DNA of 38,191 nt from a virus. Its lineage: Duplodnaviria > Heunggongvirae > Uroviricota > Caudoviricetes. Under the pieces are notes generated by a model. The model was not told the DNA's origin. It worked only from the letters and a program-made list of their open reading frames with translations, and did not search any database. The position numbers and the translations under genes were made by a program. The DNA lies in IMG/VR virus record IMGVR_UViG_2778261499_000008, positions 1 through 38,191 of that record. One strand, 5' to 3'. Below are positions 19,564-34,719 of the stretch, in pieces (the first letter of the stretch is position 1; each line of letters opens with the position of its first letter).

Positions 19564-19569
19564 ACCTCT

Positions 19570-19604
19570 AAACATTGAGCGACCAGCATGGCCGCTCAAT
19601 GTTT
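19570..19604. terminator. 12-bp perfect-stem hairpin between the moron and gene S (possible bidirectional terminator)
   Basis: AAACATTGAGCG-N11-CGCTCAATGTTT, ending in TTT followed by AATT, directly after the moron stop codon and after the S stop on the other strand. Confidence 0.5.
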
Positions 19605-19634
19605 AATTGCGCATCAGCCTCTGTCTGGATAAAA

Positions 19635-28842: not shown

Positions 28843-28984
28843 ACACCCCGTCATCACGCCCTCACACGCTCACCACCGCACAAAACACCCCGCAGACACA
28901 CCAACGCCTCAACGGGCAGACTAAGCGCCATTACGACGCGCTGAGACGCTGAAAAAATAAAATCAGCACCACCGCCAGCGCGCA

Positions 28985-29003
28985 GTGCTTTCCCCGCCTC
29001 GCC
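28985..29003. other. cos: cos-like site (candidate 19-nt cohesive end)
   Basis: GTGCTTTCCCCGCCTCGCC is the reverse complement of the P2 cohesive-end sequence GGCGAGGCGGGGAAAGCAC as I recall it; lies about 170 bp beyond Q, as in P2. Confidence 0.7.
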
Positions 29004-29246
29004 CGCCCGCTTCATGGGGCGGTTTTAATGCGGTTGCACAGCCATGTCAAAGCCATGTCAACACTAGCAGTATGTAAAAAGAGCAGATATAAGAAACAAA
29101 TGCAGTTTCATGCAAAAAGCGACACACATCATGTCATGAAACAAAGCCGCTAATGAACACTTGCTTTGGTTATCTTAAGGTTTTATCTTCAGCCTAACCT
29201 ATTGATTGCATGAAACTAAAATGAACTCTCAGCAAGGAACGACTAT

Positions 29247-31205
29247 ATGTCAGATTTCGAAATTAAAATTGATTTGAATGTGCTAAATCACCTAGGGATG
29301 AGTCTCTATTCCAATACTCCCGCGGTACTAACTGAGATTATATCAAATGCATGGGATGCAGATGCTCAAAATGTAGAAATTACACTTGATGTTGAGAAAG
29401 GAGAGGTCATCATTAAAGATGATGGTCATGGCATGTCTAAAGATGACATTATTAATAAGTTCCTAAAAGTCGGTTATGCTCGCAGGGAACATGGAAGAGC
29501 CAAAAGCGATCATCTAAAACGTCAAGTTATGGGCAGAAAAGGTATTGGTAAGCTTGCCATGTTTTCACTTGCCAATAAAATCCAAGTTTATTCGTACAAA
29601 AAGGGGGAACAGCCTCAGGCCTTTGAGGTAGATGTCAAAGATTTACAGCAAAGTATCAAAGAATCAAAAAACTATATTGCTGACTCCCTTGAAATACCCG
29701 AAAATCTTGCTTACGGCACTACAATTAAATTATTTGAACTAAAAAAAGCCATTGATAGGACTCAAACTTACCTCAGAAAGCGAATAGCTCGTCGATTTAG
29801 CATTATTGGCCCCAACCATAACTTTACAGTTAAAATTAATGGGACCGATATTACACCGGCAGATAGAGATTTCCTTTCAGATCTCGAGTTCATTTGGGAA
29901 TTTGGCGAATCCGACCCTGAAAGGATAAAATCCTGCACAAACATCACACAAAAAAACATATTACCAAATACTATTACCTTTGAAGGAAAAGATGTAAAAG
30001 TTAGTGGGTACATTGGCAGTGTAGTTAAGCCATCACAGTTAAAGAAAGACCCTGAAATATCTAACAACAGCATTACTGTAATCTCTCACGGACGTGTTTT
30101 TGAGGAGGACATATTATTAGAATTTGGAAGTGCTAAAGTATTCACCAATTATCTGGTCGGTGAAATAGTCGCCGATTTTCTAGATGATAACGAAAAGCCT
30201 GATATGGCAACATCTTCTCGTCAAAAACTACAACAGAATGATCCAAGATACCCTGTACTTAAAGGTTTTCTGGAAAGAACGCTACAACTAATCGATAAAG
30301 ATTGGGATAAATGGAGACGCGAAAAAGGAGTAAATGAAGTTAAAAGCAATACTCCAATAGTAAGTGAATGGCTGAATTCTCTCAAAAAACATGAGAGAGA
30401 AAGTGCCGAAAAGTTAATTGGACGAGTAAACACATTCCGTTTTTCTGGTAATGAGGAAGAACAAAAAGCAGCAAGAAAAACCGTATTAAAAAATACGGTA
30501 TTAGCCTTTGAAAGACTTAGAATTCAAGACAACCTTGATGCATTAGATAAAATAAGCAACCTTCAATCAGAAAATTTTAAAGATGTATTTGCATCTGTCA
30601 ATGACATTGAAGCAAGCATGTTTTATGAAATTACTTCGCAACGCCTTAAAGTAATTGAAAAATTCCAAAAAATAACTGATGAAAATCAGCTTGAAAGAGC
30701 TGTACAAATGTATTTATATGATCATTTATGGTTATTGGATCCTTCATGGGAAAGAGTCACAGGCACATCTGTTATGGAGCAAACATTGACCAAGGAACTA
30801 AAACAGATAAACCCTGATGCTGCTAGCGGTGCTCGTATTGATATCGCTTTCAAAACCGTTTCTGGCAAGCATGTAATTATTGAGATGAAACGACCTAAAG
30901 TGCACCCAGATATAATGAACCTAGTCGCACAAGGTAATAAATATGTACAGGCAACGACACAATGGTTCTCCAATAACCCTAAAAATTGCCCAGGTGGAAA
31001 TATACCGCATATAGAAGTAATATTCCTGGTTGGCTCTGGATATTTACAAGAGAACCAACACTCTATAAATATGCAATTACTTTCTATCAATGGAAAAATA
31101 TTGACATATAATGACCTAATCGTGCAATCAAAACAAGCCTATGCTGAATATCAAGACAAAAAGAATGATGCAGCTAGAATTATGAAAATAGTTGAGGGAA
31201 TCTAA
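29247..31205 (+). CDS. GHKL-family (MutL/MORC/Hsp90-type) ATPase fused to a C-terminal putative PD-(D/E)xK nuclease-like domain; candidate restriction/defence protein
   Basis: 652 aa. N-terminus has the Bergerat-fold motifs in order: N-box TEIISNAWDADA, G1 box IKDDGHGM, G2 box GRKGIGKLAMF. C-terminus has ARIDIAFKTVSGKHVIIEMKRPK (D ... E-x-K). AAGGAA RBS upstream. AT-rich relative to the phage backbone. Occupies the P2 old/tin position. Confidence 0.7.
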   Translation: MSDFEIKIDLNVLNHLGMSLYSNTPAVLTEIISNAWDADAQNVEITLDVEKGEVIIKDDGHGMSKDDIINKFLKVGYARREHGRAKSDHLKRQVMGRKGIGKLAMFSLANKIQVYSYKKGEQPQAFEVDVKDLQQSIKESKNYIADSLEIPENLAYGTTIKLFELKKAIDRTQTYLRKRIARRFSIIGPNHNFTVKINGTDITPADRDFLSDLEFIWEFGESDPERIKSCTNITQKNILPNTITFEGKDVKVSGYIGSVVKPSQLKKDPEISNNSITVISHGRVFEEDILLEFGSAKVFTNYLVGEIVADFLDDNEKPDMATSSRQKLQQNDPRYPVLKGFLERTLQLIDKDWDKWRREKGVNEVKSNTPIVSEWLNSLKKHERESAEKLIGRVNTFRFSGNEEEQKAARKTVLKNTVLAFERLRIQDNLDALDKISNLQSENFKDVFASVNDIEASMFYEITSQRLKVIEKFQKITDENQLERAVQMYLYDHLWLLDPSWERVTGTSVMEQTLTKELKQINPDAASGARIDIAFKTVSGKHVIIEMKRPKVHPDIMNLVAQGNKYVQATTQWFSNNPKNCPGGNIPHIEVIFLVGSGYLQENQHSINMQLLSINGKILTYNDLIVQSKQAYAEYQDKKNDAARIMKIVEGI

Positions 31206-31209
31206 TTAT

Positions 31210-31233
31210 ACCCCCCTGTTTTTTGACAGGGGG
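31210..31233. terminator. GC-rich hairpin between the convergent ATPase and methyltransferase genes (possible bidirectional terminator)
   Basis: CCCCCTGT-tttttg-ACAGGGGG, 8-bp stem, located in the 40-bp gap between the two stop codons. Confidence 0.5.
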
Positions 31234-31245
31234 ATGACATAAGTT

Positions 31246-32295
31246 TTAAATATTCATTTCTGACAAATGTTTTAAAATAGTTTCACCTACGACCTCACCA
31301 AGCCTAACAGGAACAGCATTACCTATTAAACGCGCAACTGTTCTCATTTCAATTTTTACATCATCAGGCCAAAACTCATACTTTTCTGGGAATGACTGTA
31401 ATAGCGCAGCCTCTCTTAAACTTAATGCTCTATTTTGGACAGGGTGCCCAAAGCGTCCATTCCCATATCCAATACATTGAGTTGTAATTGTCGGTCCAAG
31501 TTTATCCCAACACATTCTCCCATATACAGCAGTATATGTAGAACCACTTTCTTTTGTATGACATTTTGCTCTTAGCTCTTCTGGCCAATCACGCCATGTT
31601 CCACCAGGTTTTGATGCCATTATTCTTTTTATATTAATATCAGATAATGATGCAGAGCGATGTAGTTTATCTCCAGCGTGAACAGCACCGGCACTAATTT
31701 CAGGAAGATTACCGATTATATCTCGCACCGTTTTATAATCATTCTTCTCATGAGTTGGTGGAATTATTTCTATTTCTCCATATTTTGATGCCAATAACAC
31801 TAATCTTGAACGACTTTGTGCCATTCCATAGTCTGGACAAAACACCACCCCATACCAAACAAAATAGCCATCATTTTTAAGAGACTTAATGAAGTCCTTA
31901 AAAACCTTATGATTCACCACTCGGGGAACGTTTTCCATTGTAATAATATCTGGCTTTGCAAATTTAATTTGCTTAGCAAAGCTATAAAGCAAAGACCATC
32001 TTTTATCTTTTGAACGTACTACCCCTAATTTAGCACTATTGGTATAGCTTGAAAAAGGTTGGCATGGGGCACAACCAGCCAAAACTCGAACCTTCGCTCC
32101 TTCGAAATATTTAACTAATTCGCCGTCCTCAATGTCTGTAACACTTTTCTGGACAAAGAGTGATTTATTATTTGTCTCATAGGCAAATCGACAGGCTGCA
32201 TCTATATCATAACCTGCAACTACATTAAGCCCCGACTTCTGAAGACCGTGAGTCAAGCCACCCGCGCCACAGAATAAATCAACAACCTTAATCAA
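31246..32295 (-). CDS. DNA (cytosine-5)-methyltransferase, Dcm-type
   Basis: Motif I DLFCGAGG, motif IV PCQPFS, motif VI ENV, motif VIII QSRSR, motif X GNAVP. Start placed at a TTG preceded by a strong AGGAGG RBS (product begins (M)IKVVDLFCGAGG, 349 aa); the ORF track extends in frame to an ATG at 32397, which I consider less likely. Confidence 0.85.
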   Translation of the reverse strand: MIKVVDLFCGAGGLTHGLQKSGLNVVAGYDIDAACRFAYETNNKSLFVQKSVTDIEDGELVKYFEGAKVRVLAGCAPCQPFSSYTNSAKLGVVRSKDKRWSLLYSFAKQIKFAKPDIITMENVPRVVNHKVFKDFIKSLKNDGYFVWYGVVFCPDYGMAQSRSRLVLLASKYGEIEIIPPTHEKNDYKTVRDIIGNLPEISAGAVHAGDKLHRSASLSDINIKRIMASKPGGTWRDWPEELRAKCHTKESGSTYTAVYGRMCWDKLGPTITTQCIGYGNGRFGHPVQNRALSLREAALLQSFPEKYEFWPDDVKIEMRTVARLIGNAVPVRLGEVVGETILKHLSEMNI

Positions 32296-32406
32296 GATAA
32301 ACCTCCTTCTAATGCTGTGGGGATTGTAGCATTGTTCTTTCTCATCATCGATGTTTACTTGATGCTTGATTTGTGAATACAAAATCAAGCATGTCAATCA
32401 TTATTG
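32296..32406 (-). promoter_or_regulatory. Methyltransferase promoter region with an 11-bp perfect inverted repeat (candidate operator)
   Basis: ATGCTTGATTT-N9-AAATCAAGCAT at about 32362-32392, with a TTGACA -35-like hexamer overlapping one arm on the minus strand, and AGGAGG RBS downstream. Confidence 0.5.
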
Positions 32407-34719
32407 TTAGTTTGTTTCAAATCCCGCCCAACCATCAGAAATCGGATATGAAAACGTTTTCCCATCATAATTTACGGTCGCGCCACGCGCCAGCGCCTCA
32501 AGCTCCCATCGCTGCGGCCTGATACCGTTCTGAGCAAGGTCAACGCGGATACGGGTAATTTGCATTCTTTCCGACCGGGTCAGTCTGGCCGATGGTGCAA
32601 TTTCATGTGGTTTTAACGGGCTTCCGTTTCTTTGCTGACGACTTGGCGTTCTCCGACCGTGTTTTAATGCACCTCTGAGCGCCCTCACGACCTCCGGGTC
32701 ACTCCATTCGATAACACCGTCATCAACCAGATTAAGCACTGCTGCGGCGTGCTCAGAAGGTGTGGGAGCCGGTAACGAAGTATCACCACCGGTGAGTTTT
32801 CCACAGTTATTGACAGGACTCCGAGGCGCGGCGATGCCGCTTTTTAAAGTCAAAGGCTGAACGACCGGAACTTTCGGCACAATGCGCCAGTCCGTCGTTC
32901 TGGTGATATGAATATGACGCGCGCCGAGATGCGGCGCGTAAATGCCGACCACTCTCTCGACCTCTTCCTCGTACTCGTTAACGTCATCCGACGGGCTACG
33001 GGCGACCCTGACAGTCTGACAATCGCGCGGGACATTTGCCCCACCCTGCGCGCTGATATACAGCGCAAAATCGCCACTGTCTGCGGCAGCGCGTGCAGCC
33101 TCGACGCGTTCGTCAAACTCATCAGCAATGCTGACGCCGCGAGGCAATTTGCGTAGTTCACGGTAAGCCCCCATTGTCGGCAGGCCAACCGTTTTAAATT
33201 GCGGAATGCGCCACGTTGACGCCCATGCGGTAACAGCCGCGGCAGTGTCTTTCAGCGGCCTGCCGGTATCGTTATCGAGCTGACCATCCAGTGCATAGCC
33301 GTCGATGTTTTTTGAAATGTATTTCGCGATATATCCCGCAGCACCGCCCCGGTTAAGGTGCTTTGCCTGAAAACGGTTTCGCGCGGCTCCTCTTTCGTCA
33401 CCATCCTCTTTGAGCGCATAGCGACGCATGATTTCGATAATCTGGTTACGCTGGCGTGGATTACAAAAAAGCATCATATGCCAGTGCGGCGTTCCGTCGT
33501 GGTGTGGCTCGACGACACGCAAACCGTAGACCTGTAAATCATTATCCTTGAATGCCGTGCGCATCAGGCTCCAGATGCGGCAGAGATAACGCTGCGCATC
33601 CTTTGGATTAAATGCCTCATCGTTCCAGCCGTGATTTAGCTGGACGGTTTTACTTTCGCCTTTTCCAACCTGACGTGTCGGGTGATACTTTGACGGCGCG
33701 GTGAGCGTGATAAACATCCCCACATCACCCTCTGCTGCGGCGTAACGCTCAATACCAGCAATGGTGTTCATCAGCTCCATCCGGCGAATTTCAGGATTAG
33801 AAATACTGCCCATCACCTTACTGATAAGGTCGATGCGCTCGCCGGTTTCCCTGTTTTCGAGATCACACGATTTAAGAAATTCCAGATTTGCCTGGCGGCG
33901 CGCACGCACATCACGAATGGCGTGTTTACTGGCATAAGGAGAACGGTCTTTATTGACCTCCCCGACAGCTATCAGTAACGCTTCATGCCAGCGCATACGC
34001 TGGCCTTTAAGCTGATGAGTCCACCACTCATCGTTAAACAGACGGGCAATGGCAGAATATGCCTGCCTCGTGGTCATCTGTCCTTTACGGTATTTTTTCC
34101 AGTAGAGAGGGGAAATATTGAAAGCTCGTGCAGCGCCAGCAACATGACCATACAGGTGAGCCTGAGCCTCATCCGTAAACAGTGATTCTTTTTCGCCATG
34201 CGCATCCACCCAGGCATCGCTGAGTTCCTCATACATCATGAAAAGCTGCGATGAGATACGGGCGGCAAACTTTTTCAGCTCCTTGTCATTCATTCCCGGC
34301 AGGCGCGCATAGTGGTCACGCTCTGCCAGAAACAGCAACGACGTGTCGGTGTTCATTTCATGGCGCTGATTCACACGCTCAATGCGCGGCCATAAACGAC
34401 GCTGAAAAGTGGATGTGAGGAAATAAAACCCGTGCACCGGGCTTTTATTGCGCCGGATGTAGTCATAGCGTGAAGTAAACAGCGAGCGCAAAAAGTAAGG
34501 CAGGCGGTTAATCGTGGATAAAACACCTTGCACCTGACGCATCTCGTCACGTGTAAGGGGTCTTTCGCGCCCGACGGCCTCGCGTGGCGCGTTCCATGCA
34601 TAAGCACCGGTCGTCTTACCGGTGCCTGCGGCAAATGCTGACGGAGGGACAAAACGCCCGGAGGCTTTAACGGCCATATGAGCCAAAAGCCTCTGAACAA
34701 CGCTTGCTGAGTTGCTCAA
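32407..34719 (-). CDS. A: Replication initiation protein gpA (rolling-circle initiator/nickase)
   Basis: 770-aa ORF recognisably P2 gpA (…VVEPHHDGTPHWHMMLF… …GYIAKYISKNIDGY…). True start may be a few codons downstream of the ORF-track start (P2 gpA is about 761 aa). Confidence 0.88.
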   Translation of the reverse strand: MSNSASVVQRLLAHMAVKASGRFVPPSAFAAGTGKTTGAYAWNAPREAVGRERPLTRDEMRQVQGVLSTINRLPYFLRSLFTSRYDYIRRNKSPVHGFYFLTSTFQRRLWPRIERVNQRHEMNTDTSLLFLAERDHYARLPGMNDKELKKFAARISSQLFMMYEELSDAWVDAHGEKESLFTDEAQAHLYGHVAGAARAFNISPLYWKKYRKGQMTTRQAYSAIARLFNDEWWTHQLKGQRMRWHEALLIAVGEVNKDRSPYASKHAIRDVRARRQANLEFLKSCDLENRETGERIDLISKVMGSISNPEIRRMELMNTIAGIERYAAAEGDVGMFITLTAPSKYHPTRQVGKGESKTVQLNHGWNDEAFNPKDAQRYLCRIWSLMRTAFKDNDLQVYGLRVVEPHHDGTPHWHMMLFCNPRQRNQIIEIMRRYALKEDGDERGAARNRFQAKHLNRGGAAGYIAKYISKNIDGYALDGQLDNDTGRPLKDTAAAVTAWASTWRIPQFKTVGLPTMGAYRELRKLPRGVSIADEFDERVEAARAAADSGDFALYISAQGGANVPRDCQTVRVARSPSDDVNEYEEEVERVVGIYAPHLGARHIHITRTTDWRIVPKVPVVQPLTLKSGIAAPRSPVNNCGKLTGGDTSLPAPTPSEHAAAVLNLVDDGVIEWSDPEVVRALRGALKHGRRTPSRQQRNGSPLKPHEIAPSARLTRSERMQITRIRVDLAQNGIRPQRWELEALARGATVNYDGKTFSYPISDGWAGFETN

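Follow-up and report, generated by a model that had tools for sequence, protein, structure and literature searches.

An inverted repeat between gene A and a cytosine methyltransferase gene of a P2-like prophage: a probable by-product of a cargo junction

We lean towards reading the gap between the P2 gene A and the C5 methyltransferase gene of an Escherichia coli prophage as an ordinary cargo junction, and the perfect inverted repeat within it as a by-product of that junction without a dedicated regulatory role. This reading builds on the observed anatomy of the gap, its homologies and its pattern of conservation. The palindrome itself probably has no regulatory function, and the control elements of the methyltransferase gene appear to be a conserved weak -35 hexamer, an extended -10 element, a Shine-Dalgarno sequence and a TTG start codon (Table 1). 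Nothing in the arrangement departs from known kinds of systems.

Table 1. Features at the junction of gene A and the restriction-modification cassette
Feature	Position	Strand	Basis or remark
P2 gene A (replication endonuclease), last gene of the early operon	32407..34719	-	Pfam Phage_GPA E = 7e-124; PV340563 and RefSeq annotation
Relic of the initiation region of a small ORF since displaced, AATGATTGAC-ATG-CTT-GAT-TTT-G	32380..32402	-	21/23 identical to AATGATTGAAATGGTTGATTTTG
Inverted repeat ATGCTTGATTT-N9-AAATCAAGCAT	32362..32392	.	Centre 32377, 49 nt upstream of the -10 hexamer
Conserved block CATCGATGA, holding the predicted -35 hexamer TCGATG (32351-32346), 17 nt from the -10	32345..32353	-	C-TCGA-G invariant in A2
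Predicted extended -10 TGcTACAAT (TGCTACAAT) of the methyltransferase promoter	32323..32331	-	ATGnTACAATC invariant in A2
Shine-Dalgarno AGGAGG, 6 nt ahead of the start codon	32302..32307	-	Read from sequence; GGAGG kept in orthologues
C5 DNA cytosine methyltransferase, 349 aa, TTG start 32295-32293	31246..32295	-	Pfam DNA_methylase E = 1e-55; TIGR00675
GHKL-ATPase-type restriction enzyme (paraMORC3 type, BbrUII/HgiDII family), convergent partner gene	29247..31205	+	Own promoter-like blocks upstream

The window, by which the whole analysed stretch of 38,191 nt is meant, is an E. coli P2-like prophage, and 30 complete E. coli genomes and phage PhiR44_1 share 801 nt of it at 98.5-100% identity. 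A literature search for PhiR44_1 returned nothing. The PhiR44_1 record (PV340563) annotates gpA, a 'Dcm protein' and 'paraMORC3', followed by the portal gene Q; the RefSeq names are replication endonuclease, DNA cytosine methyltransferase and ATP-binding protein. The partner of the methyltransferase (M) is a 652-aa protein (R) that scores 752.7 bits against a cut-off of 550 with the NCBIfam equivalog of the BbrUII/HgiDII family (NF050001.1), matches PADLOC REase_II (E = 1.6e-91) and Pfam HATPase_c_3, and carries the paraMORC3 annotation in PV340563. With its N-terminal GHKL module and a D...ExK motif visible near the C-terminus it fits the paraMORC3 architecture, a GHKL module joined to a C-terminal RE-fold nuclease (Iyer et al. 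2008, PMC2292703). By homology the methyltransferase and nuclease pair is a type II restriction-modification (R-M) system of the BbrUII/HgiDII family, since the curated equivalog is passed and a C5 methyltransferase is linked; the partner protein agrees with the published account of paraMORC3 (PMC2292703) in its linkage to a cytosine methylase, and nothing is notably different. The convergent M and R genes are separated by 40 nt, where a terminator-like hairpin lies (31195-31216). The enzymes that give the family its name, HgiDII and BbrUII, recognise GTCGAC, a sequence found four times in the window against 7.8 +/- 2.6 expected, a depletion that is not significant.

The cos end at 28986-29003 places the M and R pair in the gpA-gpQ defence hotspot of P2-like phages, where cargo is described as using native promoters (Rousset et al. 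2022, PMC9122126). With the hotspot cargo of that paper and of a second one (NAR 2026, PMC13586616) the cassette shares its place between gene A and cos or the portal gene Q, its nature as a self-contained unit with its own promoter, and its occurrence in distantly related P2/186-like backbones. The vestigial SD-ATG seen here at the seam sets it apart: a term search of both papers turned up neither junction sequences nor inverted repeats. The orthologous M+R cassette was collected from 13 other contexts, P2/186-like prophages in which it is flanked on one side by gpA (or a DinI/Tum-like gene) and on the other by the portal gene. Methyltransferase identity to the window is 72-100% over the orthologous cassettes; cassettes at 72-90% sit in backbones whose gpA, by tblastn at five loci, is no more than 32-37% identical. 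Upstream regions were compared in an alignment of nine sequences (A2) together with an anchored listing of all 13 contexts. Between the phage genes all 13 contexts hold the DNA_methylase and HATPase_c_3 genes only, with no controller gene; in the window no ORF lies between or beside M and R save a 15-codon relic, the small ORFs near cos (28854-29153) being outside the Pfam scan.

On the minus strand, the 111 nt of the gap (32296-32406) follow the TAA with which gene A ends (32409-32407) and run CAATAATGA-TTGACA-TGCTTGATTT-TGTATTCAC-AAATCAAGCAT-CAAGTAAACATCGATGATGAGAAAGAACAATGCTACAATCCCCACAGCATTAGA-AGGAGG-TTTATC-TTG, the last triplet being the methyltransferase start. The first-pass annotation had described a perfect 11-bp inverted repeat with a 9-nt spacer in this gap, and its arms (32362-32372 and 32382-32392) are indeed complementary at 11 of 11 positions, with no more complementarity outside them. 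It had likewise been right about AGGAGG, six nucleotides and TTG in front of the methyltransferase. The TTGACA that it placed across one arm is present at 32397-32392 on the minus strand, but the hexamer and the arm have only its final A in common. How surprising such a repeat should appear depends on the search space. In first-order Markov simulations, a 38-kb window is expected to contain 0.24 perfect repeats with arms of 11 nt or more and a spacer of at most 20 nt, and 18% of simulated windows hold at least one; in the 111-nt gap alone, given its composition, the chance is about 0.0015. The repeat is thus locally unusual but only mildly so over the whole window. The one other such repeat in the window lies at 19569-19605 and has 13-nt arms (TAAACATTGAGCG-N11-CGCTCAATGTTTA).

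The TTG start at 32295 is well supported by sequence comparison and is already the database call, being the start both in RefSeq (WP_000598783.1) and in the PhiR44_1 record. The protein that begins there reads MIKVVDLFCGAGG, so that motif I (FCGAGG) starts at residue 8, preceded by seven residues; of the 120 best homologues, 91 have a motif I that begins at residue 7-10, typically as MIKVVDLFCGAGG, and the closest methyltransferase homologues are 341-352 aa long. GGAGG and TTG are invariant across all orthologous cassettes, and two of these (L057 and L059) have a 1-nt indel between the -10 and the Shine-Dalgarno sequence, which shows that the stretch upstream of the TTG is non-coding. The longer ORF of the mechanical ORF list, starting at 32397, does add 34 codons, but its first codon is the TTG of TTGACA and not an ATG; the ATG within the arm (32392-32390) is out of the methyltransferase frame. 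Judging from the indel and from the block-wise conservation described below, this mechanical extension is non-coding. Pfam DNA_methylase covers residues 2-341 of the 349-aa protein. The TTG codon itself is kept in every orthologous cassette (L019-L024, L057-L060 and L180-L184, at 72-100% amino acid identity), and the conservation of a non-ATG start suggests that translation initiation is under selection to proceed at a particular rate, probably a low one.

Upstream of the start, alignment A2 has a constant order: C-TCGA-G, a variable spacer, ATGnTACAATC, a short variable leader, GGAGG and TTG. Such block-wise conservation is typical of a promoter. The TCGA(T/A)G core is found in 13 of 13 orthologous contexts, as is TACAAT with an upstream TG; the latter has the form of a sigma-70 extended -10 (TGnTAnnnT) and keeps its position relative to the gene. 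A weak -35 suffices where a TGn extended -10 is present, and TCGATG, 17 nt and TGcTACAAT would accordingly make a working promoter with a predicted transcription start at about 32316-32318. The built-in promoter scan missed it because the scan demands four of six -35 matches and TCGATG is weak. TTGACA, which had been taken as a -35-like element, lacks a partner: no promoter was called by the sigma-70 scan with TTGACA as its -35, no -10 hexamer lies 16-18 nt downstream, and the hexamer at 17 nt is ACAAAT, without the A at position 2. The hexamer stands 63 nt upstream of TACAAT, and the orthologue-conserved promoter lies 40-70 nt downstream of it; a role of TTGACA as the -35 is not supported. 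The -35 block at 32346-32353 is also an 8-bp palindrome, CATCGATG, the single such site in the window, with its TCGA core in 13 of 13 cassettes; the core may be conserved for more than its part in the -35, for instance as a site that is methylation-sensitive or bound by a protein.

The inverted repeat behaves quite differently from these signals. Across 30 E. coli genomes, phage PhiR44_1 and about 10 viral or metagenome contigs the gap shows 100% identity; these copies represent one recent lineage and carry no independent information on whether the repeat is conserved. It occurs in none of the 13 orthologous cassette contexts, and scans of IMG/VR and JGI metagenomes for the repeat core, the junction or the promoter returned the identical clone only, plus chance coding matches. 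Homology of the cassette, relative to its closest non-identical relatives (L019 and L020, 90%), starts at CAAGTAAAC, the first base 3' of the repeat, and both relatives have a T-run in place of the M-proximal arm. Comparison of the left-arm region with the sequence upstream of other cassettes gave individual p values of 0.03-0.8, at best a hint on which no weight is placed here. Context L058 has a different perfect 16-bp palindrome and L183 a 7-nt dyad elsewhere; in the other contexts there is nothing comparable. The L058 palindrome, TTTTATAGCTATAAAA, lies upstream of the methyltransferase gene at about 818-833, its centre 47.5 nt upstream of the -10 as against 49 in the window. The idea that a dyad is conserved at a set distance from the -10 was considered and rejected, as the window and L058 are alone in this among the contexts compared and their sequences are unrelated; by our own estimate, 100 nt of AT-rich DNA should contain about 0.1 dyads of 8 nt or longer. 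Palindromes of another kind, resembling LexA boxes (TACTGT...ACAGTA), occur between gpA and the cassette in L019 (3635-3666) and L020 (3640-3661) and downstream of gpA in L069 and L088; DinI-family ORFs adjoin such palindromes in L059, L060, L180, L181 and L183, an arrangement that resembles the SOS-controlled tum region of phage 186.

The origin of the A-proximal arm points in the same direction. Similarity among P2-like backbones breaks down at the last few codons of gene A, which marks a recombination seam, and phages of the pro147 type, which carry different cargo, have AATGATTGAAATGGTTGATTTTG at the place where the window has AATGATTGACATGCTTGATTTTG. In those phages the initiation region of the small ORF after gene A reads TTGAAATGGTTGATTTTG. 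In L081 the corresponding sequence is GGTGATTGAAATGGCTGATTTTGAA, in which GGTGA serves as ribosome-binding site for a 38-aa ORF (MADFESII...) that begins at the ATG and weakly matches phrog_519 (E = 5e-4). The relic region of the window takes in both TTGACA and the A-proximal arm: TTGACA corresponds to the spacer between Shine-Dalgarno and ATG, TTGAAA(TG) (TTGAAATG), with one A-to-C change, and the arm ATGCTTGATTT is, by this homology, the start codon and codons 2-4 of a displaced gene. What is left of that gene in the window is a 15-codon ORF (32392-32345, MLDFVFTNQASSKHR*) out of the methyltransferase frame. In pro147 itself (L002, 4309-4400) the small ORF at the shared SD-ATG ends after seven codons, and homology to the L081 ORF goes on in the +1 frame, which indicates a frameshifted remnant in pro147-type phages too. 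The M-proximal arm falls within 18 nt, TATTCACAAATCAAGCAT (32379-32362), that are lineage-specific and for which no source was identified; they hold a 7-nt tandem repeat, ATCAAGC/ATCAAGT, and a slip duplication of this kind may have lengthened a shorter chance dyad.

The repeat is absent while the promoter is kept in orthologues whose gpA is only distantly related, which argues that the palindrome is not part of the cassette; with one arm and TTGACA a dead-gene relic and the other arm lineage-specific, a by-product of the junction is the most likely origin. The gap would then be a mosaic seam in the gpA-gpQ hotspot, where a two-gene type II R-M cassette (the C5 methyltransferase and the BbrUII/HgiDII-family, paraMORC3-type nuclease) took the place of earlier cargo. 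The cassette would have carried its own M signals, from the weak -35 TCGATG through the 17-nt spacer, TGcTACAAT and short leader to AGGAGG and TTG, and expression of the methyltransferase in the lysogen would depend on them. Of the previous cargo, a stump consisting of a small ORF's ribosome-binding site, ATG and first codons would remain upstream and supply TTGACA and the A-proximal arm, while the other arm would come from about 18 nt of lineage-specific sequence just ahead of the cassette homology, the dyad possibly being lengthened by the 7-nt slip duplication. At most, the palindrome would form an AU-rich hairpin in read-through early transcripts. Several observations count against this account: the local probability of about 0.0015 (at the level of roughly 2% when about eight independent cassette contexts are allowed for, by our own rough estimate), the M-proximal arm whose origin it leaves unaccounted for, the L058 palindrome at a near-equal distance from the -10, and the likeness of an arm to the R -35 in three orthologues. 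The centre of the repeat also falls at about -61 from the predicted start, and class I activators act from a position of about -61.

These points raise the possibility that the palindrome is the site of a dimeric DNA-binding protein from outside the cassette, a host factor or phage regulator, acquired in one lineage and acting on the M promoter from about -61 as an activator or via the alpha-CTD/UP region. It is an unlikely alternative. In its favour are the perfection of the dyad, its 9-nt spacer with half-site centres 20 bp apart, its local improbability and its position upstream of the -10, as well as the presence of another palindrome at a similar distance in L058. Against it, the repeat is kept in no orthologous cassette and in no other P2-like backbone, and its left arm can be traced separately to the SD-ATG relic. 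Extending from about -46 to -76 relative to the predicted start, the repeat falls outside the core promoter and overlaps neither the conserved -35 nor the conserved -10. A search of the window for the half-site within two mismatches gave 17 matches against 14.5 expected, that is chance level, with none in the immunity region and none upstream of R, so that the prophage offers no further half-sites. Nor does the repeat match, by eye, the P2 Ogr site, a LexA box or a full CRP site. The P2 Ogr-dependent late promoters have a consensus dyad TGT-N12-ACA centred near -55; the symmetric positions here are GAT-N12-ATC, with a centre near -61. Taken together, its place outside the core promoter, its absence from all orthologous cassettes, the relic nature of the left arm and the chance-level half-sites speak against the operator that the first-pass annotation had proposed. 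The repeat was also considered as part of the P2 origin of replication and rejected, as most P2-like phages lack it and the origin is located within gene A (PMC3986222, citing Liu and Haggard-Ljungquist 1994).

The R gene has conserved -35, -10 and Shine-Dalgarno blocks of its own (alignment A3), reading CTTGCTTT, about 17 nt, TTATCTTC, CAAGGAA and then ATG at about 29160-29246. In L057, L059 and L019 the R -35 region matches the repeat arm at 10 of 11 positions (TTGCTTGATTT, ATGCTTGCTTT and AGGCTTGATTT, respectively), a likeness that is possibly just -35-like composition. Further upstream, direct repeats ATGCAGTTTCATGCA lie at 29100-29114 (A3; consensus ATGCAnnTTCATGCA, sometimes with a third copy). 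The ATGCAnnTTCATGCA repeats were rejected as a shared operator: they are unrelated to the inverted repeat, the cos end is about 100 nt away and distantly related P2/186-like phages retain them, and they are probably a feature of the backbone, such as a cos or terminase accessory site, and not of the cargo.

The repeat could also act as RNA: the P2 early (Pe) transcript would end, beyond gene A, in a hairpin that shields the mRNA from 3' exonucleases or marks a processing site, partly insulating the lytic operon from the lysogenic cassette. It does lie on the sense strand, 15 nt past the gene A stop, and some P2-like phages (L044 and L064) have GC-rich hairpins directly after gene A. The predicted structure, with an 11-bp stem, belongs to the best fold of a 73-nt stretch at -14.3 kcal/mol (z = -2.0). 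Yet 9 of 200 shuffles fold equally well, and with z-scores of -2.0 and -1.0 on the two strands the sequence is marginally better than its shuffles. The stem is AU-rich, with G-C pairs at 3 of 11 positions, and is followed by CAAGUAAAC, without a U-tract. The terminator scan made no call at the repeat, and the reading as an intrinsic terminator, which would have a GC-rich stem with a U-tract, was dropped on the missing U-tract and the weak z-scores. Rfam returned a sub-threshold match alone (26.8 bits against a gathering score of 79), and pro147-type phages have the left arm but no equivalent stem. A role as RNA is therefore decidedly unlikely.

A more speculative variant would combine the relic with a function: the palindrome may be a recently evolved operator, built from the start region of the dead gene and a few lineage-specific bases, for a dimeric host or prophage regulator bound at about -61. 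We regard this as a long shot; if true, modification would be coupled to the state of the phage or host in one P2 lineage, and a regulatory site would have been born at a cargo junction.

Control by the cassette itself fares worst. Autoregulatory circuits do exist in other type II systems: in the SsoII, Ecl18kI, EcoRII and MspI type, the N-terminal region of the C5 methyltransferase binds an inverted repeat in the promoter region, and in systems with a C protein and C-boxes (PvuII, AhdI, Esp1396I) palindromic operators delay expression of the nuclease relative to the methylase. The window resembles the SsoII/EcoRII type in having a C5 methyltransferase gene, an inverted repeat upstream of it and oppositely oriented M and R genes. 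Unlike in that type, there is no N-terminal DNA-binding region, the Pfam domain filling all but the ends of the protein and the 34-codon extension being non-coding, and orthologous cassettes do not share the repeat, which is located beyond the core promoter; unlike in the C-protein systems, there is neither a controller gene nor a copy of the operator at the R promoter. The earlier proposal that the methyltransferase or another cassette-encoded controller binds the palindrome, autoregulating M and timing methylation relative to the nuclease, is barely credible for a cassette that consists of M and R only, has no third gene in 13 contexts and lacks the repeat, which sits off the conserved -35 and -10, in every orthologue.

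If the gap is an ordinary cargo junction, as we favour, the significance is mostly one of annotation: the start of the methyltransferase gene at 32295 agrees with the existing database call, and its likely promoter has been located. The eye-catching combination of TTGACA and a palindrome would belong to the recombination seam and not to the control logic of the cassette. Anyone cloning hotspot cargo 'with its native promoter' should need no more than the conserved 75 nt (32353-32296 and a little sequence upstream). Finally, several cargo types retain, where the gpA-gpQ hotspot begins on the left, the initiation stump of a displaced gene, which marks the site at which cargo is exchanged.
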